In this document: positions 1,163 to 24,462 of the stretch, piece by piece
How positions within the stretch are numbered: the first letter of the stretch is position 1
Layout of the letters: every line of letters starts with the position of its first letter
Virus record (IMG/VR): IMGVR_UViG_3300042478_001867
Span: 1 to 25,475 of that record
Origin: a virus
Taxonomy: Duplodnaviria > Caudoviricetes
Reading direction: 5' to 3' (one strand)
Length of the DNA: 25,475 nucleotides
The notes under the pieces: generated by a model
What the model was told of the DNA's origin: nothing
Seen by the model: the letters and a program-made list of their open reading frames with translations, nothing else
Databases searched by the model: none
Position numbers and translations under genes: made by a program

Positions 1163-2642
1163 CCTCGACACGATCCTAGAACCGAACCCAGGACCGCAAA
1201 CCGATTGCTTTGAATCGGAGGCCGATATTGTCATTTATGGCGGCAGCGCCGGAGGTGGCAAGTCTTGGACTATAGTTCACGATCCATTGCGATACGTGGA
1301 CTTGCCAGGGTTCCGAGCAATCATCTTTCGACGGACCTATCCGGAGCTAACGGGGCAGGGCGGATTGTGGGACGAATGCCAACCGAGCTATCGAGCCCTT
1401 GGCGCTAGTCTTCGAGACATTCCACACCTGGACGCGGAATTCGAATCTGGTGCACGGATTAAGTTGTCGCATTTGCAGCATGAAAAGGACAAGTATTCGC
1501 ATCAGGGCTTGCAGTACGCTTTTGTCGGGTTCGACGAGTTGACGCACTTTACCGAGACCATGTTTTTCTACATGTTGTCTCGATTGCGGACTACATGCGG
1601 AATCCGTCCATACGTGCGTTGCACTTGCAACCCAAAGCCAGGCTGGGTTGCTGACCTCCTTGCTTGGTGGATCGGCGAGGACGGCTACGCAATTCAAGAT
1701 CGCATTGGGAAGCTTCGATACTTCTATCGCGACTCCGAAGGGATCTTACATTGGTCCGACTCGAAGCAAGAATTGATCGAGGAATTCGATGACATCGACG
1801 AAAACGACATCATGTCGGTCACGTTCATCCGGGCGACGCTCGATGACAACCCCAAACTGCTCGAACGGGATCCGGGCTACAAAGGGCGGTTGAAAGCCCA
1901 ATCCAAAATAGAGCGAGCCAGATTATTAGACGGCAACTGGAATGTCGCCGAAGGAACACAAATCGATTCAGCTTGGGTTCGTAGATACGTTTGCAACCAA
2001 GCTGAGTTCCACATCACTTTTCAAGATCACTTCTACAGGATCCCTTTCGCCAAGTGCCAACGCTTTGCCACGATCGACACGGCTGGAACATCTAAGGAAA
2101 AGGCAGCGGTAACGCGTGGCAAGCAACCATCTTGGAGTATCTGCGCGGTATGGGATCACCTGCCCCATTTGGTCATGCCGGTTGGGGACCGAAAGGTGAT
2201 TCTCTCGGAGCTGCTGTTCCTGCGATACGTTTGGCGTGGGCAAGTAGATTGGAGCAGGCTGGTAGCTGGCGTAGACGATACGCTCGCAGCATGGGAAGTG
2301 CCAAAGGCATACGTCGAGAATGCTCACTTCGGGCCGGTACTTGCAAAAGAGGTAACCGCGTGCAAGGTGGAGCTTGTGGGCCCGTGCATTCCAGGCATGG
2401 GAGACAACTGGGAAGGGGCTAAGCTAGAACGTGCGGTCGCTTCCAAAATGCTCGCTCGTTGGGAGCATGGAAAGATATTCGTCCCCCTCGAACAATCCGA
2501 TTGGCTCAAAGCGTACTTGCGAGTACTTTTAGGCTGGACTGGCAAGCCGGACGAACCAAACGACGACATTGACGTGACCTCCTACGCCGCCTACGTCTCG
2601 AAGCGATCGAGCGCGGCATGGGGGGGAGTTATCAAAACGTGA
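1149..2642 (+). CDS. terL: Terminase large subunit (Terminase_6-type ATPase plus RNase H-like nuclease)
   Basis: Q-motif PNPGPQ, Walker A GGSAGGGKS, Walker B FVGFDE, coupling motif CTCNP. Nuclease acidic residues in TIDTA, YVEN and NDDIDV. Confidence 0.95.
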   Translation: MVASNLDTILEPNPGPQTDCFESEADIVIYGGSAGGGKSWTIVHDPLRYVDLPGFRAIIFRRTYPELTGQGGLWDECQPSYRALGASLRDIPHLDAEFESGARIKLSHLQHEKDKYSHQGLQYAFVGFDELTHFTETMFFYMLSRLRTTCGIRPYVRCTCNPKPGWVADLLAWWIGEDGYAIQDRIGKLRYFYRDSEGILHWSDSKQELIEEFDDIDENDIMSVTFIRATLDDNPKLLERDPGYKGRLKAQSKIERARLLDGNWNVAEGTQIDSAWVRRYVCNQAEFHITFQDHFYRIPFAKCQRFATIDTAGTSKEKAAVTRGKQPSWSICAVWDHLPHLVMPVGDRKVILSELLFLRYVWRGQVDWSRLVAGVDDTLAAWEVPKAYVENAHFGPVLAKEVTACKVELVGPCIPGMGDNWEGAKLERAVASKMLARWEHGKIFVPLEQSDWLKAYLRVLLGWTGKPDEPNDDIDVTSYAAYVSKRSSAAWGGVIKT

Positions 2643-2650
2643 GAAACAAA

Positions 2651-3082
2651 ATGAGCAGCGCACCACACGGAAAAAGCCAAGCGAACCTCGTTGGAGACAT
2701 CGAGACGCATGCAACTGACCCGATTCTAAACCAAGCGACGGTTGCGTCGGTTCTCGGTGTGCATAAAAGTACGGTGCACCGATGGCTCGAAACCGGTGCG
2801 ATGCTTGCGGTTCGGAATCCGAAGGGCATCCTGAAGGTACGCAAAAGTACCGTTTTGAATTTTGTTCGTTCTTCCAAATGGGGCGACGACAAAGCGGTTA
2901 TTGAAACATTGGAAGGGATCGAGGACGAAGAGGTTTCGCAATCCGTAACGGTCGACCCGGTCGACGAAACAAACAGAACTGAGGAGCTGGTAAGCGATGG
3001 CAATACGCAGATGGTTGGGGACAGTGGCAGCGGTCAAGCAAGTAACGACAATCACCATCGGCGGAACAATCGCCATCGGTAA
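2651..3082 (+). CDS. Excisionase/MerR-like (HTH_17-type) DNA-binding protein
   Basis: ILNQATVASVLGVHKSTVHRWLETGAMLAVRNPKGILKVRKSTV fits a winged HTH of the Xis/HTH_17 type. ATG 2651 chosen because it follows the terL stop. The C-terminal tail overlaps the next gene by 86 nt. Confidence 0.75.
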   Translation: MSSAPHGKSQANLVGDIETHATDPILNQATVASVLGVHKSTVHRWLETGAMLAVRNPKGILKVRKSTVLNFVRSSKWGDDKAVIETLEGIEDEEVSQSVTVDPVDETNRTEELVSDGNTQMVGDSGSGQASNDNHHRRNNRHR

Positions 3083-4640: not shown

Positions 4641-5909
4641 ATGAGCGGCAAGTATCGTAAAGCGATGTTGGAGGTAGGGACTTACACGAGTCCCGACGGC
4701 GAGGTTGTCGTTACTCCCGAGCGATTGCGACATTGGGAAAAAGAAGTCAGGCGTGTACAGGAAGCGAACTATGTAATTCCTATGCATTGGGATCATGCAA
4801 GCGACATGGAGCTGCTAGAACCCATAATGCTCGATACCCTCCATGAAAACAAAACACGATCGGCCAAGAACACTGTCGGGAAAATCGTCGACTTCCAAGT
4901 AGCAGCGGACGGGCAAGCGGCGAACATCACGCTCGAGACTCTGACCCCCGAAGCAACGCGGGCAGCGGCTTCGAACACTTGCTTTGTGTCACCGGTACTT
5001 TTTTCTGAATGGAAAGATGGACGCGGCAATCTCTATCGGGACGTCATTGGGTCGGTCGATTTTGTCGACTACCCGGTTGATGCGTCGCAAGGCCCTTTTG
5101 AACCCGTTCAAGACCAACCGCAATTCATGTCTTGCGTAATTCGCATGGCCACTAACCCAAGGATTTTTAGGATGGCATCGGAAAAGGATCCAAGCAGCGC
5201 CGAACCATTCGGTAGCGAACCAGCAGCAGACGCGACATCGTACCCGGTAGCCGAAGGATCGGACGACGCAATCACCACGGACACCACGCCCCCGCAAGCA
5301 GGCGGAACCAGCGTATCGGACGTCCTCGAAGCCTTAGCCCAGTTGGGGCTCGTCTTGCCTGCTGACACCACAACCACAAGCTTCCTGGAACGTCTAAGGC
5401 CTGCATTGCTGACCGCTATCGCTGGCAAGCAACAACCTCAAGTTGAGCAACCAGCTACGACTCTCCCACCGGAAGAGAACCAGCAACAACCAGACAATCC
5501 GATCATGTCGGAGCAACCGCAAATCGCGGCCATGAGCGCGCTCAAGAAACGTATCGAGACTCTCGAATCCGATCGTATCGAAGCGACACGGGTCAAGCTC
5601 AAGGAACGAATCCAAGCTTTGCTCACGTCCGGGCGATGCTTCCCCCACGAAGCCAATGACAAGACGCGACTACTCCAAGTCCAAAAGCTTTCCGTCGCAG
5701 CGGATTGCACGGTCCATAGCGGAGATTTAGACGTGTGGCTGCGATCGCGTGAAGTATTGCCAACCGGAGCTTGTTGGGACGCTACGCAGAAGGTCAGCAA
5801 GCTCGGAACCAAACCCGTCGAAGCTCCACAGAGCTATGACACCAAAGGCTCTATCTCGAAACGTGAAGAGGACGAAGCTGTCGCAGCTTTGACCGCTCGC
5901 AACAAGTAA
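4641..5909 (+). CDS. Mu gpI-like prohead protease with C-terminal scaffold region
   Basis: N-terminal GTY...VTPERL, IPMHWDH, GKIVD and FVSPVLF match the layout of Mu-type/herpes-fold prohead proteases. An acidic Pro/Gln-rich linker and a coiled-coil region follow. Located upstream of the decoration and capsid genes. Confidence 0.75.
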   Translation: MSGKYRKAMLEVGTYTSPDGEVVVTPERLRHWEKEVRRVQEANYVIPMHWDHASDMELLEPIMLDTLHENKTRSAKNTVGKIVDFQVAADGQAANITLETLTPEATRAAASNTCFVSPVLFSEWKDGRGNLYRDVIGSVDFVDYPVDASQGPFEPVQDQPQFMSCVIRMATNPRIFRMASEKDPSSAEPFGSEPAADATSYPVAEGSDDAITTDTTPPQAGGTSVSDVLEALAQLGLVLPADTTTTSFLERLRPALLTAIAGKQQPQVEQPATTLPPEENQQQPDNPIMSEQPQIAAMSALKKRIETLESDRIEATRVKLKERIQALLTSGRCFPHEANDKTRLLQVQKLSVAADCTVHSGDLDVWLRSREVLPTGACWDATQKVSKLGTKPVEAPQSYDTKGSISKREEDEAVAALTARNK

Positions 5910-10987: not shown

Positions 10988-11320
10988 ATGATACAAAAGA
11001 CCTGGAGGATTCACACGGGCCAAAAGTCGATCGAGGTTGATCGAGGTGGAGAGGTATCGACCTTTTCCTATGACATCGTAGAAATGAAGCTCTTGGCTGA
11101 GGAACTGGAAATCAAGCATGGAATGCGCAAGCCTGACACCAACAAGGTTTCCGGACCAACGATAGCTTTCCTGAAAGAGTATGCCTCTGCCCTAGATCAT
11201 CTTGGGATTCCAGGATGCACAAGCGACACGGCTTTCCGGTTCTACAACTTAATCGGAACGCAATTCGTATTGATGACTAACGAACTTCAATCGCAATGCG
11301 AAAGCATGGCTAAGGGATAG
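10988..11320 (+). CDS. Putative tail assembly chaperone (paralog of 14403-14903)
   Basis: 110 aa, between the tube-like and tape-measure-like genes. Shares a PTxxFLKxxAxxLxxxG...CxxxxAxxFxxLI pattern with the 14403 ORF. Confidence 0.5.
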   Translation: MIQKTWRIHTGQKSIEVDRGGEVSTFSYDIVEMKLLAEELEIKHGMRKPDTNKVSGPTIAFLKEYASALDHLGIPGCTSDTAFRFYNLIGTQFVLMTNELQSQCESMAKG

Positions 11321-11326
11321 TATGGC

Positions 11327-12664
11327 ATGGCATCTGATGCAGAATTGGTTATACGTCTGCTTGGTGATAGCACGCCGGAGGAAAGCGAGGCTATCAGTAC
11401 GTCCGTCCCAAGGGATCCGGGCGTGCAGGACTATCCGCGCGCAAACCCAAACGCATCCGAGACGACTGCAACAACTCGACCGGAATCCGGACATCAGTCG
11501 GATGGCACGGGGCTGGAACGCCATTCCCTCGAGGGAGCTGTCTCCGACCTGAGAGAGACAATCCAAGTTCTCAACGATAAGCTCAAGCCAGAGCTATTCG
11601 AGCGACCCGTAGAGGATTTCTCTCGTAACCTCGATCGCTTCCTTTCGGAGTATCAAAAGAAAGAAAGCCAACGATTGGGGGCAACCGAGTCGGAACCAAA
11701 TAGGCAAGACAGCAATTCGACCTCGCAACCAGAAAGTAACCCTCGAAGTACTTTCGGCAAGTTGCGAGAGACGGGACGTCGGTTCTTAGACAGTGTCGAA
11801 AAGCGATCACCAACAGCGCGGACAATCCGAACCGGTTTTCGACTCGGAAAGGCAGTGGGGCAACGATTCACAAAGAGAGCCAGAACGCTTGCAACCAGCG
11901 TTGGCAAAACTCGATTTGGCAAGGCAGTAACAAGTGTCTCGTCTAAAGTCGCTGCGAGGTTTGGAGTAGGAGCTGCAAGCACGGCAACAACAGCGGCAAC
12001 GGCGGCAACGGCGGCAACTGCAGCGCCAGCGGCTGCAAGTGCCGGTGCAGCGGCGATCGGTGGGGTAGGAGTCGCGGTGGGAGGCGTAGTAGCCGGAATG
12101 GCAGCGCTTGCAATTGCTACTGGCGTGTTAGTAAAGAAGTTCAACGATGCGGCGGACGACATCGAAAGATTTTCCCCAGATGTATCACTTGCCAGGGCAC
12201 GAAGCCGAGCAAACACCGAACTAAACTTACTCGATCGAGCACAGCGCATCGGTCCAGCATCGGGACGATTAGAAGCGTCCAAGGGCGCTCTTGGCAATCA
12301 AGTTGAGAAGCTGCTTACTGACCTTCTCGATCTTGTGTCGAAGTTTCAGCCACAGTTAAGCGCCGGAATCAATACAGCGGAGGCAATTGTCATCAGTATT
12401 CGTGGCATGGTTGCTGCGATCGAGCGGATACTGGGTGAGATTGAAGCGTACAAAGCTTTGCTAACCCCCCTGGATCCTGCGGACGACGCGGCGGCGGCGG
12501 CGAGAAACGCAAAAGCCGAAAAAGACTTCGCAGACCGCATGGCAGATCTAGCCCTAAAATTGAATGAAGCTTGGTTGAACCTGCAAGGCAACGCGCAGCA
12601 GAATCAGCAACAGATCGATCCAATGTTGCTGCAAATTATGAACTCCAAATTCGGAGGGCCATGA
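11327..12664 (+). CDS. Short tape-measure-like protein
   Basis: Ala-rich helical protein with a hydrophobic Gly/Ala/Val segment (AIGGVGVAVGGVVAGMAALAIATGVLV). Located after the tube-like and chaperone-like genes. Confidence 0.55.
   Translation: MASDAELVIRLLGDSTPEESEAISTSVPRDPGVQDYPRANPNASETTATTRPESGHQSDGTGLERHSLEGAVSDLRETIQVLNDKLKPELFERPVEDFSRNLDRFLSEYQKKESQRLGATESEPNRQDSNSTSQPESNPRSTFGKLRETGRRFLDSVEKRSPTARTIRTGFRLGKAVGQRFTKRARTLATSVGKTRFGKAVTSVSSKVAARFGVGAASTATTAATAATAATAAPAAASAGAAAIGGVGVAVGGVVAGMAALAIATGVLVKKFNDAADDIERFSPDVSLARARSRANTELNLLDRAQRIGPASGRLEASKGALGNQVEKLLTDLLDLVSKFQPQLSAGINTAEAIVISIRGMVAAIERILGEIEAYKALLTPLDPADDAAAAARNAKAEKDFADRMADLALKLNEAWLNLQGNAQQNQQQIDPMLLQIMNSKFGGP
11981..12030 (+). 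repeat. 9-nt-period in-frame repeat (GCGGCAACN) encoding TAA-TAA-TAA
   Basis: The sequence ACGGCAACAACAGCGGCAACGGCGGCAACGGCGGCAACTGCAGCGCCAGC is read directly. Confidence 0.75.
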
Positions 12665-14406
12665 TAGTGGGCATGTCCTCGATAAGATACAACGGCTATC
12701 AATTCAACGATCGGTCAACTTACGGAGTTGTTGAGCAATATGTCTACGACGATTCTGAAAGGACTGTAAAGGCGGTTCGCTTTACCCTGAACGTCAAGAC
12801 GATCATCACGGGGAATGCGGGAGCGTCCTACACTCCAGGTACGGAAGATGCAACAACGTTTGCCGGGTTGAACGTCCACAACGCTCGGCAATTGCTTTCC
12901 AAACCCGCCGGGATACTAGACATCAAGCATGATGGTTTAGGTCCGTGGTGGGAAATCAATGGCTATTCCCTCAAAGACATTTCCTGGGGACCCAAACCGC
13001 GTTTCTTGCGTTGGGATCCTATCGGACATACCAACGCGGCGGAAGTCGAATGGGAATGCGAATTCGAGATTGCCATATGCGATGGCACTCGACCGCCAGC
13101 GTTGTCCGGCATTGCTCAATTCTCCTATTCCGTATCCTTCTCGATCGATCAGAAGGGATACACAACGCGACGAATATCGGGCGTCGTCGAAATCGCTTTG
13201 ACACGCCTCACACAGATGTCGAATTGGCTTACGGATTCGGTCGATCGGTGGAAGGATCAAATCACATTCGGGAAGCCAACAAACTTCGAACGGCAATCCG
13301 AGTGGAGCATCAACCCGGACAAAAGAACCGCAACGTTTATCATCGTTGACTCGGAGATTCAAAGCCCCAACGCTTGGCCCCCTGGAGTTGTTGGGATTCA
13401 GGCTACGCACAGAGTAAACCGCAACCGCAATTCACTTGCGAGGGTGTCTCAAACACTCAGCGCGACAATCGAGCTTTCGCCCATTGAACCCAAGGTACGC
13501 ACGTGGTTGATTTTCCGTGACCTGTTTTTGTTGCGTATCGCATACCTAAGAGAGCTAGGAACGGGCGCGGCTATCTTCATCGAATCGATCGACATTGCTG
13601 AAGAAATCTATGCCAACAAAGCAAGCTTCCAAATCGTCTTCTATTACCTTGACCCCTCCAATATGGTGAACATGTTTTCGGGGACCGGTCTATTCCAACC
13701 TTTGTTGCAAGGTCCTAATCCATGGCTTGCTTGGGCTTCGTCCCTGCAACTAATCACTCCACACCAAGGAACGGGCGGCGACCGGGCCGCGGCGGGCTTG
13801 ATGCATGAATGGGGCAATGAGCGGATTATCGACCTTTGCAACCAAACACCCTTTGGCTTTACGCCGGGAAGATCGCCCGGAGCGTTCCCGCAAAACCCGC
13901 TCCAACCCGGATCACCAGGGCAACAACAACCACCTCCGCCATGGCAAGAGGGAAGCGTCCTATCGAATACCAAGCCATCCCCCCTGAGCAGTTGGTTGCA
14001 ATTTTCTGTCACTATCGAGGTGAAAGACGACCCGTGGGTCAGCACATCGGTTCAACTCGCACCTAACGCAACAATGCATCAGCCATTCAATCCACAGAGA
14101 CCAGATACGGGCATGCCTGTAGAGTCGGAGCAAATCAAGAGGTTTATCGAGGACAAGGCAGGATTCCAATCGATTATCGTGCGAGGGTATGCCGAGCGAA
14201 TCGGATACCCTGTACCAAAACCGGGTGGGCGAATCTTCATAGGAGGACAGGCCTACACTCCGGTGGGTAAGGGTGCATTTGGGATGAAATTTGATGGCGA
14301 TTATTTTGGTGTCCCAAAGTACTCCGCTTCATGGGCACAAGAGTATCGACTGCTCACCTTCCCGAATGACAACGATCCGAAGGAAGGTCAAGAGGGCGTC
14401 GAGTGA
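12661..14406 (+). CDS. Hypothetical tail/baseplate-proximal structural protein
   Basis: ATGA overlap with the tape-measure-like gene and GGAGG upstream. Beta-rich, ~581 aa. Function is inferred from position only. Confidence 0.5.
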   Translation: MIVGMSSIRYNGYQFNDRSTYGVVEQYVYDDSERTVKAVRFTLNVKTIITGNAGASYTPGTEDATTFAGLNVHNARQLLSKPAGILDIKHDGLGPWWEINGYSLKDISWGPKPRFLRWDPIGHTNAAEVEWECEFEIAICDGTRPPALSGIAQFSYSVSFSIDQKGYTTRRISGVVEIALTRLTQMSNWLTDSVDRWKDQITFGKPTNFERQSEWSINPDKRTATFIIVDSEIQSPNAWPPGVVGIQATHRVNRNRNSLARVSQTLSATIELSPIEPKVRTWLIFRDLFLLRIAYLRELGTGAAIFIESIDIAEEIYANKASFQIVFYYLDPSNMVNMFSGTGLFQPLLQGPNPWLAWASSLQLITPHQGTGGDRAAAGLMHEWGNERIIDLCNQTPFGFTPGRSPGAFPQNPLQPGSPGQQQPPPPWQEGSVLSNTKPSPLSSWLQFSVTIEVKDDPWVSTSVQLAPNATMHQPFNPQRPDTGMPVESEQIKRFIEDKAGFQSIIVRGYAERIGYPVPKPGGRIFIGGQAYTPVGKGAFGMKFDGDYFGVPKYSASWAQEYRLLTFPNDNDPKEGQEGVE

Positions 14407-14903
14407 TTATCGAATACGAATCACAATCCATCGAAGTATCCATGCTTGAGATGGCGAGGACAATCACGAAGCTTGCCGGGGCGTTGCCAGTTCGGAACTC
14501 GAACATGCGTCCCACCATGCCATTCTTGAAGCAAGTGGCCGAGCTTCTCGCAAGCAAAGGATTGAAGTGCGATACAACGGCGGCTTGGCAGTTTTGGCAG
14601 CTCATCACCGAAGCGATCGACGCTTACTCGCAAGCGATGGAAATTGAATCCGAAATAGCTTGGGAATATCACATCGACCCAACGCAGCTATCGGAAGAGA
14701 CCAAGCTGGGGCTAGAACGCAACATCGTGCGCAACCGAGCAAAGCAACGGTTGGCAAACGGCGACTATTCTCCCACCGATTACGAGGGTGTGTATAACTT
14801 AGCACTCTTGGCGACAGGGGACGAAGCGTACTCGCAGAAACTAAAAACCGAAGCCTTCAAACGCTTCGTCGATTCGCAAGCAAAACGAGGGCAACGAGCA
14901 TGA
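14403..14903 (+). CDS. Hypothetical protein; N-terminal half paralogous to 10988-11320
   Basis: GTGA and ATGA coupling on both sides. PTMPFLKQVAELLASKGLKCDTTAAWQFWQLI aligns by eye with PTIAFLKEYASALDHLGIPGCTSDTAFRFYNLI. Confidence 0.65.
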   Translation: MIIEYESQSIEVSMLEMARTITKLAGALPVRNSNMRPTMPFLKQVAELLASKGLKCDTTAAWQFWQLITEAIDAYSQAMEIESEIAWEYHIDPTQLSEETKLGLERNIVRNRAKQRLANGDYSPTDYEGVYNLALLATGDEAYSQKLKTEAFKRFVDSQAKRGQRA

Positions 14904-17900
14904 GTCAGTCATGGGAATTCGAGACGTACGTTGGGGTTGGAAATCGTCCGACGGGCGATGCGGCAAAAGCCATGACGGTACCGACAAAGGAGAATCCACG
15001 CGGAAACCCTCGCACGCAGCACTATCGCGGTCCTCACTACGTTTATTTCAATCAGCATCGCGATCTTCCACTCTTCACCTTTGAGACTATTCGTGTCATG
15101 CTGCGAGATCCGCAGGTTCGCTTGTGCCTCGCGATGCGAGCTGCCCCGCTTCAATCAGTCGAGTTCGCTTATCAAGATGGAATCGGCGAGGATGGGAAGC
15201 CTACTTGGATCCCTGGAGTCAAAGCTAAGAATCCAGTGGTTGCGGCATGGGTATTACGACAACTCCAAACGATATGGAATAATTACCTACCAGGAATCAT
15301 GCGATCGCAAGTATGGGGCTGGGCAGCAGGGGAAGTAACGTTGCGGCTATCTGATTCGAATCTCATTGAAATCGATCAATTGTTGCATCGGCACGCAAGG
15401 GATTGCCGCCTTATGGAATGGGAGCATGCGGGTACTCCCTGGGGTGTTCAAATCGACAACGTGAAGAACATGGGCGTTGTGCAACTCCCCTTTCCGTACT
15501 GCTACTTCATAAACTTCCGACCTGAAGACGGGGAGCGATACAGTTGTCCGATTCTGCTCGGAGCCTATTCGCCATGGTGTGACAAGTGGCTTAACGGCGG
15601 TGCGCTCGATACTCGACGCCTGTACATGCACAAAGATGCATACGGCGGCATGAAAGTGGGATACCCTGAGGAATCTGTATTTGTCGAAGGAAACGATAAC
15701 CCGGTACCAGCAAGGGATATTGCTCTGCAAATCGTAGAGCAACGCCAAGCGGGTGGAACTCTCACCTATCCGTCGACGCGCGACGATCAAGGCAACGAGA
15801 AGTGGATTATCGCAGAGGCAACAGTAGCTTCGAATCCCGAACACATTTTGAAGTATCCAAAAGACCTTGATGCGGAAATACGCCAAGGCATGGAGATCCC
15901 AGACGGTGCCATTTCCAACGACGGCGCTGGATCCTGGGAGGGCAAATCGCTTCCACTCGCAGCGTTCTACAGCGGTCTCGATTCGTGGGTGGTGCAAATT
16001 CTTTGCGACATTCGCCGCACTTTAGACCCGATCGCCCGAATGAATTTTGGGACCGACGTCGAATACGAGATCACCCATAAACCACTCGCACAATCGGCGA
16101 TGGAGCAACAGGGACAAAAGCAAGCTGGCACCGATCAAGGCCAAGCGATGCATGGCGACCCGTCAGGCATTATGAATCCAGCGGACCAAGGCATGCTGCA
16201 GCGCATGGGATCACTAGACCCCGTCGATGCGGTTGGCCGTGGTGTTCTTAGCGCTTCGTCAATCGTAGAAGCAGCTCGGAGAGCTTTGGATAATGGTGTC
16301 TTGAGGCTTTCGTTGAAAGAATCCGACGAGGGCGAAGACTCGGACGAAGAAGCCCTGGAACGCGCTAAAGCCATCGCGGAAATCCTCGAACACATCTACG
16401 GAGACGATGCGGAATCTCACTTCGACGAAATGTTCGGTTCGCAGGTCCAAAAAATGGGTTCATGGAACGCCATCGACCATCCGCGAGGACCAAACGGGCG
16501 ATTCATTCCCAAGTACAGCGCAGAGGCAGTATCAGCGGCCAAGGATGCCGTCAAGGAATCGCTACAGTCGAACAAGACACCTGAGAGTGCAAAAAAACTG
16601 GTCGAGCATTTGTCGTTGCTGAACGGCAAGCAACTTCGCGAACTGAAACAGGAATACGGTGTTTCGGCAGCAGGAAAGACCAAGCAATCTCTCGTAGAGA
16701 AGATCGCAGATCGCCTGGATCGAGGGAGACGTACTCCCAAGGATGACGCCGGTACCGAAACTCCCAAGGAAGACGCTCAGGCCTCGAGTGACACTGCTTT
16801 GAGCGACACTGCTTTGGCAGACAAAAGCTCGGAATCCAAAGCCGGGGAACCGAAGGCAAGGGAAAAGAAACCGTTCGTCTATCCAGACGGATCGACGCAG
16901 GTCTTCAACGCCGACGGAACCCCAGCGGCAACAACGGAAGCATTTTCAAAAGCCGAGGAATCTGGGGCGGATCCACGCGAGGCCGCAAAGGCTGCGGACC
17001 AACAAGAAGAAACCAAAAAGGAGTACGAATTCGCTCGCGACAGCGAAGTAGGCAACCGTGGCGAAGACCTTAAGAATTCAGCTCGACACAAGGTCAACGC
17101 TTGGAAAGGGCTAGCATCCGCCGAAACCGACGGGACAGCCGAAAAGCTTGTCAATCGCGACATGCTCTTGAAGCTTGAACCTCACAATTTGATGGAACAT
17201 GCAGACCGGGCGCCGTTGACGTCCTTGGCCATGCACTTTGCGATGAAAAGTTTTCCGCCAAACCCAGTTTACGGGAAGAACACGAAGAACACGCCCGAGC
17301 TTCGCAGTGACTACGTGGCAGCATATCAGAGCATCAAGGCTAAGGCCGAAGAGATTGCTTCCACTCATGACGATAAAGACTCGATAAAGTCCATTCGTAG
17401 ACTCCAAAGCCACGTCATGGGGATTGTCAACGAGCGGAGGAAAGCAAATCGCTTTGACAACCTCGCTAATAACTTGATCGGCTTGGCAAACTCTCTTGAG
17501 GTCAGCCGCTATGCAAGTAAGACGACCACGTATGGCAAGCTCAACGAGTTTGCCAGTGAGCTAAAAACCAAGTACGGAGACGAGTGGACAAACGCTTTCA
17601 ACGACGATAACACTCCGCAAGGAATGGAGTCCAAGCGGATCATGTTGGAAAAGGCTGCGGAACACGCAAAGGATGTCATTGAAGGGAAGTCCATCAATGC
17701 GACCTTCGGAAAAGAAAGCAAGACCGGGGCCAAAAGAAAAGATTTTGAGCTTAAGAACCTGTACGGTCAAAAGGCTGAAAGAATGGGCGGGAGGGATCTT
17801 TCGTCGATAACTTCGGACCCAAACAAAGCAGTCGACCATTTGATAGACGAATATGGTTTGAGGGGCTTTCAGTGGGGCAATTCAGTCACGGATTCAGAGC

Positions 17901-20752
17901 GGAAACACCATGCAGCCCGAATGGTTGAGGCCATAGCGGACCTTGCGGACGTCACAGGGCTCCATCCAAAAGATATTTCACTTGATGGGAAACTAGGACT
18001 TGCCGTCGGGGCTCGTGGACACGGTACGGCAGCCGCGCACTACGAGCCGGGAAACCAAGTGATCAACATGACCCGCAATAGCGGAGTTGGAACCTTCGCC
18101 CACGAATGGGGCCACGCCTTCGATCACATGCTCGGTGGCTTTGGCATTGGCCGCGACGGCGGAAAATATATGTCCGACGTCGACGTTTCCCATACCCACG
18201 AAGTTACCCACAAGACGCGGGGCTATCCTCTCCGAGTCAATGCGGCCACCGCCGAAGCCTACCGAACTCGGGGTGACGATGAGTTTACGGTAAAAGAACT
18301 GCCAGACCCAGAAATCAGAGGAGCCATGGCCTCTTGGCAAGAAGCGGCCAAGCCTTTTATGAGGCGGGTACGGGGCGTGGTATCGAAGATGATCAGAGAT
18401 GGAAAGCTATCCGAGGGTAAAAGGGATTATTGGAATAGCTCTATTGAGTGCTTCGCACGAAGCTTTGAAGTTCACGTAAAGAAGCAACTGGAAACCAAGG
18501 GCCGAAAAAACACCTATCTTTCTAGCCTCTCCGATGAGTCTGGCGAAGCTTCCCTATGGCCAACCAACGCGGAAGCCGAGTCCATGGCCGAAGCCTTTGC
18601 GGGGCTTATGACCGCATACCGACAAAAACGCCACGGACAGGCCGATCCGATCAAGTTCTCACTCTTTGACGTCATCGGCGAAGTAATTCCCGATTCTGAT
18701 GATTTCGATGAGCTTGCTATCGAAGAAAACGAGTCACCGAATTCATCCGGGCAGGTCCACAAGTACGCATGCTTGATGTTTCACCTAACGGAAGATCTTT
18801 CAGGCCGCATTCGCGAGTTCCAAGCCAACATTGCCGATGATCAGCTTGCGTCTGGCGACAGGGAACAAGAGTCGCACGTGACGCTTCTCTACGGGTTCAA
18901 GGATGAGGAGTTACAGAACGTCTTAGATGCCTTGTCCAATATGCAGGCTCCTTTGGCGACATTCTTCCAGTTAGATGCATTCCCATCAGGTAAGGATGGA
19001 GCACCACTGCACGTCTGCGTCGATTCTCCAGACCTGCACAAGATGTACGCTGAACTTAGAAAGCGTATCCCAGCCGTTTGCACGCATCCGGAATACAAGC
19101 CGCATGTCACGATTGCCTACATGAATGACGCGAGTTCACTGGTGGGCGCTAACGGTCCAATTTTTGGCGAAAGTCGCGTACTCGATCGAGCATTCATCGC
19201 TCTCCAAAGTGGAAAAAATATCGAGGTGACTTTGGGTAAGGCCGATCCGATAAGGATGGGTATTGACGACCAAACCAGAGTTGCTGGAGCCGAGTCAGAG
19301 AATGGCGATGAACAGGCAGAAGCGATCGCGGAAATACTTACGTCGCTCTACGGCGATGACGCCGAAGCCATGTTCGACAAGATCTATGGCATCAAGAGAA
19401 TGGCATGGGCAGCCATCGATCACCCAAGGGGGCCCAATGGGCGTTTCATCGCCAAGAACAGCCCCGAGGCGGCATCCGCTGCGAAGGAAAAGATCAATGA
19501 GGCGCTCAATGGCCAAAGGTCGCCTAGCTCACTGAAGACGGTTACGGAGCACCTATCGATCTTGACTGTCAAGCAGCTACGGGAGATGCAGAAGGAGCAT
19601 GGTATCCGCGCAGGCGGAGCGAAACCGCAATTGGTCGCCAAGATCGCCGATCGGCTGCATGGCAAAGTAACTCAGACGGACAGCCAAGCAAGTAAGTTCC
19701 ACGAAAACGGCACTCCAAAACAAGTCAACAACCGCGACATCTACACGGTCCCAACGTCTTCCTTGAAGGTCGACCCAAAGCGATTTCAGTACAAAGTGAA
19801 AGACATCGGGGAGGATGGCGTTACTGGAGAACTCAAGGGAGTTTCCAAGTGGAACCCGGAACTGGCCGGATCGCTATTGGTGTGGCGTGATCCATCCGAC
19901 GGGCAGGACTACGTGATCAACGGACACCATCGCCATGAATTGGCAAGCAGACTCAATGCCGATCACATCAATGCGAGATACATCGACGCGCCAAACGCCA
20001 AGGAAGCTCGCGCTCGAGGGGCATTAGCGAACATCGCGGAAGGCCGAGGATCGGCCATCGACGCCGCAAAGTACCTTCGAGACTCGGGGCAAACCCTTGA
20101 CCACCTACGCGAAGCGGGGATCAGCATGTCCGGGAAACTGGCGTCCGATGCGGTGACGCTTACTGCCCTAAACGATAAGGCATTCCAGAAGGTGACCGAA
20201 GGGAGGTTGGATGAAACGACCGCGTTGGCCGTCGCAAAGCACCTCAAGGATCCAGCACTTCAGGATCTATTGTTCAAGAAACTTGCTGATCGAGAGACCG
20301 AAGGCAAGGACTGGAGTACGCGAGAAATCGAGACGGCTGCACGCAAGATGGCCAACGCTGGAAAGGCAACGCAAACGGGCTTCGATCTGTTCGGTGCATT
20401 TGAAGATGAAAAATCGACGTTCGATCAGGAGGTAGAACTTGAATCGTTTGCAAACCGCATGCTTCAGCAGGAAGCCGACGACTACCGAGCCGTGGCCAAC
20501 AAGCGCCGAGCCAATCGGGTATCGGAGGCTGGGAACGTACTGGCGATCGACGAAAACGCTAAGCGATCCGATTCGGCAGAGCAATCCGTCAAGGATTTCA
20601 ATCGAGAAGTTCATCTTCGGGGCCCAGTAAACGCAGTGATCCAAAAGCACGCGGCAGATCTTCTGTTGGCGAAAACCAAAAAAGAGAAAGAAGCCGTTAA
20701 GTCCGCAATGATGGACGAGTTAAAATTGTCTCTTCGATCCTTTGGAACCTAA
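14900..20752 (+). CDS. Portal (Mu gp29/DUF935-like) fused to polyvalent cargo: LPD1/zincin-like, 2H-phosphoesterase and ParB-like domains
   Basis: The N-terminal ~400 aa look portal-like (MLRDPQVRLCLAMR, VWGWAAGEV, LDPIARMNFG), and there is no other portal candidate in the window. Cargo motifs: HEWGH 18101-18115, YWNSSIECFARSFE 18428-18469, HVTL 18875-18886, HVTI 19103-19114 and NGHHR 19919-19933. Confidence 0.8.
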   Translation: MSQSWEFETYVGVGNRPTGDAAKAMTVPTKENPRGNPRTQHYRGPHYVYFNQHRDLPLFTFETIRVMLRDPQVRLCLAMRAAPLQSVEFAYQDGIGEDGKPTWIPGVKAKNPVVAAWVLRQLQTIWNNYLPGIMRSQVWGWAAGEVTLRLSDSNLIEIDQLLHRHARDCRLMEWEHAGTPWGVQIDNVKNMGVVQLPFPYCYFINFRPEDGERYSCPILLGAYSPWCDKWLNGGALDTRRLYMHKDAYGGMKVGYPEESVFVEGNDNPVPARDIALQIVEQRQAGGTLTYPSTRDDQGNEKWIIAEATVASNPEHILKYPKDLDAEIRQGMEIPDGAISNDGAGSWEGKSLPLAAFYSGLDSWVVQILCDIRRTLDPIARMNFGTDVEYEITHKPLAQSAMEQQGQKQAGTDQGQAMHGDPSGIMNPADQGMLQRMGSLDPVDAVGRGVLSASSIVEAARRALDNGVLRLSLKESDEGEDSDEEALERAKAIAEILEHIYGDDAESHFDEMFGSQVQKMGSWNAIDHPRGPNGRFIPKYSAEAVSAAKDAVKESLQSNKTPESAKKLVEHLSLLNGKQLRELKQEYGVSAAGKTKQSLVEKIADRLDRGRRTPKDDAGTETPKEDAQASSDTALSDTALADKSSESKAGEPKAREKKPFVYPDGSTQVFNADGTPAATTEAFSKAEESGADPREAAKAADQQEETKKEYEFARDSEVGNRGEDLKNSARHKVNAWKGLASAETDGTAEKLVNRDMLLKLEPHNLMEHADRAPLTSLAMHFAMKSFPPNPVYGKNTKNTPELRSDYVAAYQSIKAKAEEIASTHDDKDSIKSIRRLQSHVMGIVNERRKANRFDNLANNLIGLANSLEVSRYASKTTTYGKLNEFASELKTKYGDEWTNAFNDDNTPQGMESKRIMLEKAAEHAKDVIEGKSINATFGKESKTGAKRKDFELKNLYGQKAERMGGRDLSSITSDPNKAVDHLIDEYGLRGFQWGNSVTDSERKHHAARMVEAIADLADVTGLHPKDISLDGKLGLAVGARGHGTAAAHYEPGNQVINMTRNSGVGTFAHEWGHAFDHMLGGFGIGRDGGKYMSDVDVSHTHEVTHKTRGYPLRVNAATAEAYRTRGDDEFTVKELPDPEIRGAMASWQEAAKPFMRRVRGVVSKMIRDGKLSEGKRDYWNSSIECFARSFEVHVKKQLETKGRKNTYLSSLSDESGEASLWPTNAEAESMAEAFAGLMTAYRQKRHGQADPIKFSLFDVIGEVIPDSDDFDELAIEENESPNSSGQVHKYACLMFHLTEDLSGRIREFQANIADDQLASGDREQESHVTLLYGFKDEELQNVLDALSNMQAPLATFFQLDAFPSGKDGAPLHVCVDSPDLHKMYAELRKRIPAVCTHPEYKPHVTIAYMNDASSLVGANGPIFGESRVLDRAFIALQSGKNIEVTLGKADPIRMGIDDQTRVAGAESENGDEQAEAIAEILTSLYGDDAEAMFDKIYGIKRMAWAAIDHPRGPNGRFIAKNSPEAASAAKEKINEALNGQRSPSSLKTVTEHLSILTVKQLREMQKEHGIRAGGAKPQLVAKIADRLHGKVTQTDSQASKFHENGTPKQVNNRDIYTVPTSSLKVDPKRFQYKVKDIGEDGVTGELKGVSKWNPELAGSLLVWRDPSDGQDYVINGHHRHELASRLNADHINARYIDAPNAKEARARGALANIAEGRGSAIDAAKYLRDSGQTLDHLREAGISMSGKLASDAVTLTALNDKAFQKVTEGRLDETTALAVAKHLKDPALQDLLFKKLADRETEGKDWSTREIETAARKMANAGKATQTGFDLFGAFEDEKSTFDQEVELESFANRMLQQEADDYRAVANKRRANRVSEAGNVLAIDENAKRSDSAEQSVKDFNREVHLRGPVNAVIQKHAADLLLAKTKKEKEAVKSAMMDELKLSLRSFGT
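16364..16717 (+). repeat. Internal protein repeat copy 1 (AIAEIL...YGDDAE / HPRGPNGRFI / SAP-like), ~118 aa
   Basis: Aligns colinearly with 19316-19657 in translation. Confidence 0.9.
16733..16815 (+). repeat. Short in-frame duplications in the polyprotein linker (TPKDDA/TPKEDA; SDTAL-SDTAL)
   Basis: ACTCCCAAGGA(T/A)GACGC at 16733 and 16760. GAG(T/C)GACACTGCTTT at 16786 and 16801. Confidence 0.8.
18639..19251 (+). repeat. 13-bp direct repeat AGGCCGATCCGAT bracketing the 2H-phosphoesterase module
   Basis: Identical copies at 18639-18651 and 19239-19251, exactly 600 nt apart and in the same frame (both encode A-D-P-I). Confidence 0.8.
19316..19657 (+). repeat. Internal protein repeat copy 2 (AIAEIL...YGDDAE / HPRGPNGRFI / SAP-like), ~114 aa
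   Basis: Shares AIAEIL, YGDDAE, AIDHPRGPNGRFI, SAAK, EHLS, KQLRE and KIADRL with copy 1. Confidence 0.9.
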
Positions 20753-20770
20753 ACCTAATCGGAGTAAGCA

Positions 20771-20941
20771 ATGGCCAACGATCCAACCGAGCCCAAAAAA
20801 AGCGAATGGTACCTGACCCCGGAGGAAGCTAGCCGAGTCGCCAAAGGCCATCGCGAAATGGTTGAACTCCCAGAGACGAAACCTATCCCTCAGGCCAAAA
20901 AATCTGAACCCGACAAGACGAAACCGGAAACCGATGGCTAG
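20771..20941 (+). CDS. Small hypothetical protein (56 aa, not in ORF track)
   Basis: GGAG at 20761-20764, then ATG 20771, encoding MANDPTEPKKSEWYLTPEEASRVAKGHREMVELPETKPIPQAKKSEPDKTKPETDG. Fills the gap between portal and MuF, and its stop overlaps the MuF ATG by 8 nt. Confidence 0.65.
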   Translation: MANDPTEPKKSEWYLTPEEASRVAKGHREMVELPETKPIPQAKKSEPDKTKPETDG

Positions 20942-21950
20942 TTTAACGTCCCTCGAACCAAGCGATCGCATAGCAGGCATGGCCCTCATCGGGGCTGAGG
21001 CTTTGTTTGCAGAAATTCGCGGACGGATCGGCGATGCTGCTACCGGACCAATCTACGCACCGCAATCGAACTTGCTTTCGGCAATCTGGAAAGTGATGAA
21101 CGATTCGGTCCCTGTCATTGTCGACCATCTGACGGATACCGAGATGGCGAGCTGGACGGGTGGTATGGATTCGTTGGCCAAGCAACTCCCGAAGTGGCTA
21201 CTCGGCGACTTCATGGATGGACGTTTTGGGCAGTCTCCCCCGGACCGTCCTCGCTTCTCTCTCTTCGACATGTTCGGCGACGAGCCGAAACTGCGATTTC
21301 CATTGATCGAAAAGGCAGCAGAGAAACTCGCCGATCGCAACATCATGACTCGCAGCGACTGGGATGCAGCAACGCGGTCCGCGCAGGAGCGAGCGTTCTT
21401 CATCACCGGCGACATCACTCGGGACACGATCTCCAAAGTTCGAGATGAGCTTGTCAACGATTTATCCGACGGCACGTCGCTTCTCACGTTTCGCGAACGA
21501 GTCAGCGACGTTCTGAACCGTTCTGCCATCGGCCCGGCCAGAGTGGAGAACATTTATCGCACCAACGTCCAAGCCGCATTCCGCGATGGACGTGAGACGT
21601 TGGCCAGCCATCCGGTTGTCGCTGGGATCTTCCCCTATCAGCAGTACCTCGCTCAGCATGATGCGAGAACCAGGCACCAGCACAAGGAACTCGAGAAGCT
21701 GGGTCTCAACGGGACTGCGGTCTATCGCCGAGACGATCCGTTCTGGGATATGTTCACGCCCCCTTGGGATTACCAGTGCCGTTGCGGCGTACGCATGCTG
21801 ACCATCTCCCAGGCGGCTAAGTTGGGCGTCAAGGAAGCAATCGAGTGGCTCGATACCGGCGTCGCGCCGATGCGACCGGAATGGCGGTATCAAGACATCC
21901 CATTTGCTGCGAAGCCAGGATTTGGAAGCCGTGGAAGGGTGGCAGCATGA
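20934..21950 (+). CDS. MuF / SPP1 gp7-like minor head morphogenesis protein
   Basis: Hallmark motifs AFFITG, RVENIYRTNVQAAF, DARTRHQH and DDPFWDMFTPPWDYQCRC. Start moved to ATG 20934. Confidence 0.9.
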   Translation: MASLTSLEPSDRIAGMALIGAEALFAEIRGRIGDAATGPIYAPQSNLLSAIWKVMNDSVPVIVDHLTDTEMASWTGGMDSLAKQLPKWLLGDFMDGRFGQSPPDRPRFSLFDMFGDEPKLRFPLIEKAAEKLADRNIMTRSDWDAATRSAQERAFFITGDITRDTISKVRDELVNDLSDGTSLLTFRERVSDVLNRSAIGPARVENIYRTNVQAAFRDGRETLASHPVVAGIFPYQQYLAQHDARTRHQHKELEKLGLNGTAVYRRDDPFWDMFTPPWDYQCRCGVRMLTISQAAKLGVKEAIEWLDTGVAPMRPEWRYQDIPFAAKPGFGSRGRVAA

Positions 21951-23233
21951 CGAAGGTTTATGCCTACAAATGGAAGGTTGGAGGCTTTGATGTTGAAAGC
22001 CCTGAACCATCGACCAACCCCCAAAAGCAGTTTCTTGATATGCCGCGAGGGGCCGTCTCTGGATTTGCTCAGTTCTACCTACGAACGGATGACGCAAAAA
22101 AGGTATCGCAGCAGTCTTCGGTTGACATCGTTGCCAACATCTTTACCCGCGAAAATGACGGTTCAACGGTATGGCAACAAACCGATTCGATGACCTGGAA
22201 AAAGTACATCCCCGTCGAAATCGCGGAAGAGAATCAACGAGGCTATTCGCTCGTCATTCTTCGGGACGTGCGTCACAAACTCGACAGAGCGGAAACGGCG
22301 AAGATCTGGAACGAAGTACGATACGTGACATTTACGGCATCCCTTGCCGAAACAATCACCTACGAGCCCCTGCATTTGAATAGCGGCGTTCCGTACACGT
22401 ATCAGAACATCGTGACGGAGCTGCTCGGACCAATTACAGCGCCATCACTTCCAGCGGGTGGATCCGGCATTCCAAGAAACCTGAAAAGCACAGGATCGAC
22501 CGCTGCGGCTCTCGATGGAATCCTTGCATCGCTTGGCTACGCCCTGACGATTAGCCGGGACGGTACAGCGAACTATGTAGACGTAGGCAACGTGACGGTC
22601 CCACCTAAGATCACAGCGGCGCGAACTGAAAAGCTTATCGGGACGATAGAAGGAAACCCAGTGCTTCACGGCAAGGTTACGGTATGGCCAACGAAGTATT
22701 ATCCCTATCACCCAAAATCCAGTTCGACCGCGATCGGAGGTGGAGGCGACGCAAAAGAAATCATCCTTCTCGATCACGAACTATCTGACAAAAACGCGGG
22801 TGTTCTCTCTGCCCGACTGACCGCCATTCAGACCGTTGTGAATGCATGGCACCAGGCCGAACGGAACGATTACGACGACACCTTCTACGGTCTTTTGGAC
22901 GTAGTGCCAGGTCCAGGGATAACACGAGTCACTTGGTACGTTGGCGACAACGCACAAGGGCATTGCACGCGGGTAAAGCAGTATTCGCCGCCTATGCCTT
23001 GGCCAGACCGCACCGAACCGCCAGCTCCAACGCCATTGTGGGGCAAGACATTCAACACTATCGCGGCGGATTCCACCGGCGAAGTATTTGTTGACGATCC
23101 GGTATCGGGCGGTATGTGGACGACATCGAGCAAGGTGCAGTTTGTCTACAACCGTGGGCCTGCGATCGCAACGAACAAGCGGGTGATACTATTTCCCATG
23201 GATGACCGTTGGTGCGTTGTGGAGGTGTGCTAG
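21947..23233 (+). CDS. Hypothetical tail-tip/hub-like structural protein
   Basis: ATGA overlap with MuF. Contains LVILRDVR, YTYQNIVTELL and AAALDGILASLGY, reminiscent of hub-type proteins. Ends in WCVVEVC. Confidence 0.5.
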   Translation: MTKVYAYKWKVGGFDVESPEPSTNPQKQFLDMPRGAVSGFAQFYLRTDDAKKVSQQSSVDIVANIFTRENDGSTVWQQTDSMTWKKYIPVEIAEENQRGYSLVILRDVRHKLDRAETAKIWNEVRYVTFTASLAETITYEPLHLNSGVPYTYQNIVTELLGPITAPSLPAGGSGIPRNLKSTGSTAAALDGILASLGYALTISRDGTANYVDVGNVTVPPKITAARTEKLIGTIEGNPVLHGKVTVWPTKYYPYHPKSSSTAIGGGGDAKEIILLDHELSDKNAGVLSARLTAIQTVVNAWHQAERNDYDDTFYGLLDVVPGPGITRVTWYVGDNAQGHCTRVKQYSPPMPWPDRTEPPAPTPLWGKTFNTIAADSTGEVFVDDPVSGGMWTTSSKVQFVYNRGPAIATNKRVILFPMDDRWCVVEVC

Positions 23234-24462
23234 TGGCCAGGATCGGTACTTGTTGCTGCATCGAATGCCTTATTTTTTCCGACGACTTCACGAGAGGAGA
23301 GACCGGAACTCCGTTGGGTAATAGAGTCTCAGCACCGTTCTCGGGCCAGGGATGGTGCGATACCCCTGGGGACTACTACATCGTGGATACCCCAACGTGG
23401 AGAGCCAGGTGCGAAGTCCCAGACGCGAAAGCGATCTGCAACGTGAAGCACCCTAACGAAGTTGGCTCCATGTACGTCTCTCTGATCACGCAAGAGGAAG
23501 AGAACCGAGCTGGTTCGGAGTACTCTGATGGACAGAAGTGGCGACTCTATTTGAACGTCTCCAGGACGGTCTCGGGCGACCCGGAGGAATGCGAGGCGAC
23601 ATCCTACTACTTCGCCGAGTACGAGAGGCTTGGTGGAGCTGCTGGAGGGTCTTCGGATCCCGCCGATCGGAGCTGGATTCGGCTTGGGGTTGGCAGCGGG
23701 GGCAGCGAATCGATTTTGAAGCAGCTCCAAGTGTTTTCCGAAACGGGTGACTCAAGGCGTTTCTGGGCGACTATCGACGAGGACAGCTTTTGCGCCGGGG
23801 TCGACAATTCCATACTTGGTTCCGTGTCGATGGAATCTCCAGGGCTGTTTGTAAACGGATGGTACAGCGGGTTCGGGATGAGCGAACAAGACATGCTCGC
23901 CGACAACTTTGAGTTCTATCGGCACTACAACAGCAATCCACCTGAAACCAGGGACCTCAATTGTCCGCGATGCGGATTGTGCCTTTGTGACGACAACACC
24001 GCAGAAGGAACCGATAACCAAATCGAACTGCCCGCAGTGCTGAACGTCTGCATTTGGCCAGACCCAGAGGACTGCGCTCGCCTAATAAACCTTGAGCCTT
24101 GTTGCTTCCAGATCGAATACGATCGAGTCGACAACGCGTGGAAGCATGATGAGCAGCAGTGCTGCGGTCAGTTTATCGTCGAGTTTGCTTGCGCTGCCGA
24201 GCCGGGAATCAACAAGTATGTCCTGGCAAACATGGGCGGTTGCACTCAGACAGGTGAAGGCACCAGCACTCGCAACCCGATCGACTACAGATGCGCAAGC
24301 GAGACGGGGGAGTCGTGCTTCCTTTTCGGCCCATACGTCATAACCGAACTAGATTTTGCTTGCCTTTGTCGCGACACTATTTTCGGGACTGGTGCGTGTG
24401 GTTACTACGTTACGGTAAGTTCCGATGACTGTTGCTCACGAAGGGATTGCAGTGGTGTGTAG
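23233..24462 (+). CDS. Cys-rich putative virion/tail-tip protein (29 Cys in 409 aa)
   Basis: GGAGG at 23221-23225, then GTG 23233 overlapping the upstream TAG. Starts MARIGTCCCIEC. Contains IFSDDF (a lectin-like start), three CC pairs and CPRCGLCLC. Confidence 0.7.
   Translation: MARIGTCCCIECLIFSDDFTRGETGTPLGNRVSAPFSGQGWCDTPGDYYIVDTPTWRARCEVPDAKAICNVKHPNEVGSMYVSLITQEEENRAGSEYSDGQKWRLYLNVSRTVSGDPEECEATSYYFAEYERLGGAAGGSSDPADRSWIRLGVGSGGSESILKQLQVFSETGDSRRFWATIDEDSFCAGVDNSILGSVSMESPGLFVNGWYSGFGMSEQDMLADNFEFYRHYNSNPPETRDLNCPRCGLCLCDDNTAEGTDNQIELPAVLNVCIWPDPEDCARLINLEPCCFQIEYDRVDNAWKHDEQQCCGQFIVEFACAAEPGINKYVLANMGGCTQTGEGTSTRNPIDYRCASETGESCFLFGPYVITELDFACLCRDTIFGTGACGYYVTVSSDDCCSRRDCSGV

Follow-up and report, generated by a model that had tools for sequence, protein, structure and literature searches.

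The 25,475-nucleotide stretch of caudovirus DNA analysed here, referred to below as the window (IMG/VR record IMGVR_UViG_3300042478_001867), contains a block of head and tail genes comprising terminase, protease/scaffold, decoration, capsid-sized, adaptor and tail-like genes together with a portal fusion and a MuF gene. The portal fusion is an open reading frame (ORF) of 1950 amino acids (aa) at positions 14900–20752 on the plus strand, as are all of its domains and sites described below. An original prediction, made from the letters of the DNA, held this ORF to be a portal polyprotein whose cargo is released by proteolysis and delivered with the genome to counter host defence before phage gene expression, provided that the ORF is not a frameshift-merged artefact. 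The ORF consists of 1950 codons without a stop, and the window contains no N. Four of the six IMG/VR loci compared contain the complete ORF with 100% identity (the sequence of one further locus, L002, ends before the end of the ORF, and the other, L005, is a variant), and it lies on a single contig, with no substitutions or gaps, in two of four sequencing runs, none of the four differing from it; these runs may be the source samples of the window. Because an identical ORF is present in four other contigs and the sequencing runs show no differences, we rule out a frameshift merge.

From its N terminus to its C terminus the protein is composed of a Mu-type portal, a leader with an HPR motif and a SAP-like domain, a zincin/LPD1 peptidase, an Acb1-like 2H phosphoesterase, a second leader, and a ParB/Noc-type domain, and at six of its joints (aa 435, 469, 518, 1252, 1452 and 1500) we find a short motif, [RK]-[MLF]-[SAG], that the original prediction had missed and that we refer to below as predicted cut sites 1 to 6. 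The portal assignment, proposed for the first ~400 aa, is borne out for aa 1–410 (14900–16129) by a match of residues 1–420 to Pfam Portal_Mu (PF06074) that lies just above the cut-off (24.5 bits versus 23.9; homologs in the family reach E 1e-18), and by an AlphaFold (AF2) model (predicted local distance difference test score, 78) for which Foldseek returned 124 PDB matches at E ≤ 0.001 (best E 1e-12), those listed all being portal or neck structures, including the Mu neck 9khx. The last helix of this domain (aa 396–410) is the likely crown, and the crown of a portal faces the capsid interior. A linker rich in Q, G and M separates the portal from a short conserved helix (aa 437–470; 16208–16309) that is detected by BLAST in 36 of 90 homologs and is found in two portal-only members too. 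Predicted cut site 1 (R435-M-G; 16202–16210) lies at the end of the linker, and the motif precedes the helix in 52 of the 55 helix-bearing homologs. Predicted cut site 2 (R469-L-S) follows at 16304–16312.

What comes next is modular. An acidic helical spacer (module 1; 16337–16459), which ends in predicted cut site 3 (K518-M-G), leads into leader 1 (16460–16735), in which the sequence W-x4-HPRG-x2-GRF is followed by a SAP-like helical domain; this leader occurs in 37 of the 90 homologs. SAP-family matches to the leader are below the cut-off (E 0.0015–0.003, and 1e-4 in homolog P0008), and the SAP-like domain is likely to bind nucleic acid. A second such unit lies further downstream, where an acidic helical spacer (module 2; 19292–19405) ends in predicted cut site 6 (R1500-M-A) and leads into leader 2 (19406–19684), again with an HPRG motif and a SAP-like domain. 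The two modules that had been noticed initially are a genuine internal duplication, with 52–56% identity over 119–147 aa (as compared with L005) and leaders that are 58% identical.

Between the two leaders lie two enzymes. The first is a helical region followed by a zincin metallopeptidase (MPTase; 17012–18649) that displays each of the features described for such domains in polyvalent proteins (PMC5512222), namely HEXXH, an Asp three residues on, and a Glu on a later helix (HEWGH at 1068–1072, D1075, and E1183). The helix with E1183 is part of the Pfam LPD1 match (aa 1174–1242, E 8e-12), and, going by the fold description in that paper, LPD1 and the zincin probably form a single peptidase domain. 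Residues 979–1243 match giant proteins of Stx-type phages. The second enzyme, flanked by predicted cut sites 4 (K1252-F-S; 18653–18661) and 5 (R1452-M-G; 19253–19261), is a 2H phosphoesterase (18752–19234; Pfam match aa 1320–1411, E 9e-10) with both HxT motifs intact, at H1326 and about H1401–1402. Its nearest solved relatives are Acb1 proteins, which take the top two places among PDB sequences (7T26 and 9Q2G; E 1.8e-5 and 6.9e-5), with a cyclic phosphodiesterase third and other 2H proteins close behind (E 2e-4); among Pfam models Acb1 passes its cut-off (28.3 bits versus 27) and the generic 2_5_RNA_ligase2 scores higher (39.2 bits). By sequence, the domain is closest of all to 2H domains from other giant polyvalent proteins.

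The C-terminal part of the protein (19727–20752) is a ParB/Noc-type N-terminal domain (with GHHR at 1675) followed by a helix-turn-helix (HTH) domain and long C-terminal helices; the last 350 aa give a fold match to ParB, Noc and KorB (E 7e-7). This part is of the canonical ParB type and not DdrB-like: aa 1601–1950 gave no Pfam match at E ≤ 0.5 to the DdrB-like ParB family (PF18763), a family that does pick up homologs P0059 and P0062. Searching PDB with a profile built from the ParB alignment, full-length rows included, returned nothing useful, and we rejected a PHROG 'portal' match at aa 1541–1947 as a second portal, the ParB-like module having been absorbed into that profile. The domain content proposed at the outset (LPD1/zincin, 2H and ParB-like) is thus confirmed by Pfam, catalytic motifs and fold matches, and with at least two conflict domains in one chain, encoded alongside portal-terminase packaging genes, the fusion has the make-up of a phage polyvalent protein.

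The motif at the joints of the portal fusion recurs in the gene at 4641–5909 (plus strand), which encodes a putative Mu gpI-like head protease/scaffold. This family call rests on Atlas features (0.95) and structure (TM 0.67–0.68 to PF10123 rows), together with a conserved His (His52, in 20 of 21 homologs) and Ser (Ser117, in all 21; 4 of 25 matches were left out of the alignment as near-copies or partial). At five aligned sites of the scaffold part (x-[ML]-[SAG] at aa 168, 177, 297, 349 and 387) the motif is present in 21, 21, 21, 21 and 19 of the 21 homologs, and in a set of 20 more divergent homologs it is found in 13–20 at each site. Its density in the scaffold half of the gene is 2.7 per 100 aa, 7-fold that in the protease domain (0.39). 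A basic residue is preferred and not required at the first position, because the third of the five sites always reads A/T/M-M-S. Phage Mu serves as a control: the scaffold part of its gpI has five x-x-L-S-A repeats, and its portal carries AALSA at ~427–431, beyond the last modelled residue. In the structure of the Mu virion the last 124 residues of the portal are absent, which has been ascribed to protease I (PMC11915804). This precedent, and the predicted site common to the head protease and the portal fusion, support the initial idea of release by proteolysis.

The best control for the motif as a processing tag comes, we suggest, from comparing 2H domains. In portal fusions the 2H domain is flanked by the motif upstream in 10 of 12 cases and downstream in 9 of 12, versus 0 of 14 and 1 of 14 in unrelated giant proteins that carry a related 2H. 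The motif is likewise found just ahead of the HPR leader at 38 of 43 distinct sites in its strict form (background 7.7%) and at 41 of 43 in the broader form x-M-[SAG]. Ahead of other types of leader the strict and broader forms occur at 4/4 and 4/4 sites (GWKN), 2/11 and 10/11 (RAPxG), and 1/3 and 2/3 (GRTY), with background rates across these leader tests of 8–13%. The MuF minor head protein, encoded immediately downstream of the portal fusion (20937–21950, plus strand), tells a similar story, since its relatives with C-terminal cargo gain the motif at the joint (L017, L018, L019, L026 and L049). Two further candidates, RMG at aa 961 of the fusion and RFSLF within MuF (which resembles site 4), were dropped as neither is conserved, the latter among MuF homologs. 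Taken together, these sequence comparisons make it quite probable that the fusion is cut at the six predicted sites.

The zincin could instead process the protein itself, or the tail could stay attached to the portal with the motif serving as a docking sequence of the scaffold type. Autoproteolysis by the MPTase has been proposed for polyvalent proteins (PMC5512222) and the HEXXH of the fusion is intact; similarly, the repeated motif of the scaffold could be a binding repeat. The zincin, however, is present in just 6 of the 90 family members, yet the motif punctuates most of them, and two copies of the motif in the protease gene come immediately after the protease domain, a position at which self-cleavage would be expected. 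We therefore consider both variants improbable and favour cutting by the head protease.

The homologs show that what lies between the cut sites is exchanged. Our family set was assembled from 56 long homologs and 63 loci, which gave 114 sequences after 7 copies of the window protein were dropped and 90 non-redundant sequences, some of them partial at contig ends. Lengths range from portal-only proteins (~460 aa; L009, L030, L052 and L054) up to 3096 aa. Among the 90, ParB is the commonest cargo (40), ahead of the HPR-SAP leader (37), 2H (12), and the zincin of the window type (6). A scan of 27 homologs revealed further cargo: SNF2 helicases, sigma-70 domains, ADP-ribosyltransferase, RelA/SpoT, zeta toxin, InPase, PBECR, LPD3, DarA_C and topoisomerase I. 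Near-identical portals bear different cargo, which is the swapping that a survey of homologs had been expected to reveal. In the window's own clade the swaps fall at the motif in four of five pairs. Specifically, L005, whose DNA is 94–97% identical to the window, lacks the 2H cassette and diverges directly after K1252-F-S, as do P0001 and P0006, also without 2H; in P0003 and P0004 other cargo begins right past R1452-M-G; and site 2 is a swap point between P0005, in which 2H stands directly behind R469-L-S, and P0004 and P0006. Predicted cut sites 4 and 5 are thus the left and right borders of the 2H cassette. On a quick tree of the portals 2H needs 10 gains or losses, and its clustering is no stronger than in shuffled data (46 of 500 shuffles as low).

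Cargo of this kind is also found outside the portal chain and in other combinations. Two MuF homologs (L017:15693–21137 and L026:14214–21113) are extended beyond 1800–2300 aa with cargo of their own that starts with the motif and an RAPxG leader, and two free-standing post-portal genes (L034:7586–10189 and L037:15011–20611) share the acidic spacer, the motif and the HPR-SAP leader with the portal fusion, as cargo belts split from the portal. Four portal fusions (P0043, P0044, P0046 and P0048) contain sigma-70 regions 2 and 4, some together with zeta toxin, ADP-ribosyltransferase or RelA/SpoT, and possibly represent a virion-delivered sigma factor.

Might such a tail be mainly structural, or neutral? 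The cut pieces could aid head assembly or DNA organisation, with the acidic spacers acting as scaffold and SAP and ParB as DNA condensers, and the enzymes could be passengers in a tail that tolerates recombination. The portal-only members, and spacers that are acidic, helical and scaffold-like, are in keeping with this. The catalytic motifs, however, are intact and conserved, the ParB domain is better conserved than the portal (its copies are mostly 70–86% identical), and the roughly ten gains and losses of 2H on the portal tree are as expected under conflict. We find a structural role the least credible of the alternatives considered.

We propose instead, with a probability of about 0.55, that the 1950-aa protein is a Mu-type portal with a swappable cargo belt that is cut by the Mu gpI-like head protease, and that the pieces are then ejected with the DNA. 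The portal crown would place the C-terminal tail inside the assembling prohead. In other capsid proteases a small residue follows the cut, and by analogy the tag would be cut between M/L/F and S/A/G. The predicted fragments are a portal of 49 kDa, leader plus zincin (81 kDa), 2H (22 kDa), leader plus ParB (49 kDa), and three short spacers. Twelve tails amount to 2.0 MDa, or ~3% of the volume of a sphere with an assumed radius of 26 nm. Cutting would expose the basic HPR/SAP N termini, which would tether the pieces to the DNA for co-ejection, and the ejected pieces would act early in the next host cell: the 2H piece would, like Acb1, hydrolyse alarm signals made of cyclic nucleotides, the ParB piece would bind and shield the incoming genome, and the zincin would cut a host or phage protein. 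We lean towards injection of at least the leader-bearing pieces; for activity of 2H against signals of the type used in cyclic-oligonucleotide-based antiphage signalling systems (CBASS) we see the chances as evenly balanced.

Several observations are consistent with injection. Prochlorococcus phage P-SCSP1c, which is T7-like, encodes a 2571-aa protein (L088:4657–12372) that carries the same ParB-type module at ~aa 450–760. Its gene is suggestively placed in the internal-virion-protein block, second after one for an 'internal virion protein'; no ejection-protein profile matched the protein. Indirect support may come from the match of the zincin region to giant proteins of Stx phages, a kind found inside virions of phi24B, whose LPD1-bearing gp47 was detected in virions and is absent from the cryo-EM model (bioRxiv 10.64898/2026.04.10.717836). 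In phage T4, internal proteins reach the cell by this route after being cut, and so do even foreign enzymes (PMC9026906). A more tentative extension, which we hold to be rather doubtful, is that the belt is programmable: the protease tag would be combined with interchangeable basic leaders (HPRG-SAP, GWKN, RAPxG and GRTY) that serve as ejection signals once cut, the core payload would be a ParB-type clamp that is already loaded in the head and that shields the incoming genome by closing on it, and the Acb1-like nuclease would be added or dropped according to host defences.

A number of results weigh against cutting by this protease followed by ejection. The putative protease gave no Pfam or PDB match and no hhalign alignment to Mu gpI. 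A three-letter motif is weak on its own: there are 14 loose matches in the ORF, 8 of which are off the joints, and the tape-measure-like gene has 7. Across the family BLAST breakpoints are enriched at the motif just 1.4–1.7-fold (88 of 398, versus 55 expected), and 7 of 17 divergence points between close pairs fall at it, against a background of 21%; the window's own clade accounts for four of these, and the rest look fortuitous. Many swaps keep the leader and alter what follows, and many of the motif sites counted are homologous and hence not independent counts. As to ejection, the SAP matches of the leaders are sub-threshold, and the predicted 2H piece is acidic (isoelectric point 4.6) and has no DNA-binding leader.

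These properties of the 2H piece bear on the main rival, in which counter-defence takes place late, in the cell that produces the virions: the head protease cuts the belt, its products (chiefly 2H, which lacks a leader) either remain in the prohead or escape from it, and they destroy alarm signals while heads are being assembled, making injection unnecessary. A small, acidic piece without a leader fits this well, the fusion would couple release of 2H to the moment at which the protease is active, and prohead proteases are triggers of CBASS at a late stage of infection (PMC12991175). Because CBASS can be triggered in this way, action before phage gene expression, as originally envisaged, is just one possible timing, and the cell that makes the virions could be where the 2H piece acts. 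Nevertheless, the output of a free late gene would far exceed 12 copies per head, other cargo of the family (sigma factors, SNF2 helicases, ADP-ribosyltransferases, DarA_C and topoisomerase) suits early action, and ParB and zincin modules recur in proteins of the ejection type. We consider action confined to the producing cell unlikely, and retain ejection of the cut pieces as the preferred reading.

The host of the virus is likely a member of the Planctomycetota, and most likely of the Pirellulaceae, because 11 of the 13 bacterial-genome loci with a related portal belong to the Planctomycetota, mostly Pirellulaceae. A related prophage, which combines portal, leader and ParB with the same tags, is present in Brakhagea baltica SH449 (DSM 116586), a type strain that is in culture. 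Of 121 genomes from the likely host family, 10 contain SMODS cyclases that score above the cut-off, and therefore a target for 2H exists. A PADLOC scan gave no meaningful match. The sequence occurs in lake-water metagenomes, and no RNA dataset is among those listed as containing it. IMG/VR estimates the window's record to be 55% complete, and near-identical records of 45 kb and 41 kb to be 97% and 100% complete.

Portal and MuF sit amid tail-region genes (11327–21950), ~12 kb downstream of the terminase and after a short tape-measure-like gene of 445 aa, and the protease, decoration and capsid genes lie 8–10 kb upstream of the portal, likewise in most relatives. Two small genes (10988–11320 and 14403–14903) have a segment of 41 aa in common (37% identity, pairwise E 5e-6) and are possibly paralogous tail-assembly chaperones. 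A Cys-rich ORF of 417 aa (23209–24462) without a Pfam or PHROG match is perhaps a tail-tip or receptor-binding protein, and a small HTH gene (2618–3082) lies between the terminase and the structural genes.

Parts of this picture are already known. Effectors fused to portal or MuF have been described, and for 2H fusions of this kind degradation of signalling nucleotides and an anti-defence role were predicted in 2017 (Iyer et al. 2017, PMC5512222), in line with the precedent for individual fusions that the original prediction had assumed; protease-released head cargo is known in T4. The general principle is thus established in T4 and other phages, which limits surprise. What the locus adds is a specific predicted cut code, exchange of cassettes at cut sites in close relatives, a grammar of leaders, core cargo in the form of a canonical ParB, and a related prophage in a host that is in culture. 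Our literature searches, which left most subscription papers outside their scope, found no cleavage motif for Mu gpI-like proteases and no paper on the portal-fusion family or its motif. If our proposal is correct, it would supply the cleavage specificity of Mu gpI-like proteases, the injected toolkit of a little-studied family of Planctomycete phages could be read from sequence, and exact fragments are predicted for mass spectrometry. The window and L005 form a natural plus/minus pair for the 2017 prediction on portal-fused 2H.

Comparison with known systems sets out what is shared and what is not. With the polyvalent proteins of PMC5512222 the fusion has in common MPTase, LPD1, 2H and the ParB superfamily in one chain, the packaging context, and portal fusions (2H, PBECR and InPase to portal or MuF). 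In the passages compared, however, processing is assigned to the MPTase, with neither a head-protease cut code nor leader modules, the ParB is of the DdrB type, which the window's ParB does not match, and the string 'planctomy' is found nowhere in its main text. Solved Acb1 chains (7T26 and 9Q2G) share the 2H fold and the two HxT motifs, and are 144–165 aa long. The CTP-binding clamps ParB, Noc and KorB share the arrangement of an N-terminal ParB domain followed by HTH and a GxxR motif. This motif is usually GERR, whereas the window has GHHR, has no ParA partner, and carries its ParB as portal cargo.

The closest parallels to the proposed mechanism are Mu and T4. Mu gp29 (H), gpI and gp30 provide a PF06074 portal, an adjoining MuF, a protease with motif repeats in its scaffold, and a portal C terminus missing from the virion structure. 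The Mu portal tail, however, is 124 residues long without known enzymes, whereas the window has ~1510 residues of cargo; the Mu motif is small-x-L-S-A rather than [RK]-[MLF]-[SAG]; and the window's portal gene stands among tail-region genes, 12 kb from the terminase. The internal proteins and Alt of T4, which are cut by gp21 (PMC9026906), likewise are head cargo that a prohead protease frees at a short motif and that is delivered into the cell, and the ejection proteins of SPN3US are grouped with them as protease-freed, delivered head cargo; one of the T4 proteins, IPI, counters a restriction enzyme (PMC9026906). T4 cargo is encoded separately, bears short N-terminal targeting peptides and is packaged in hundreds of copies, whereas the portal as carrier would limit the cargo of the window's phage to ~12 copies.

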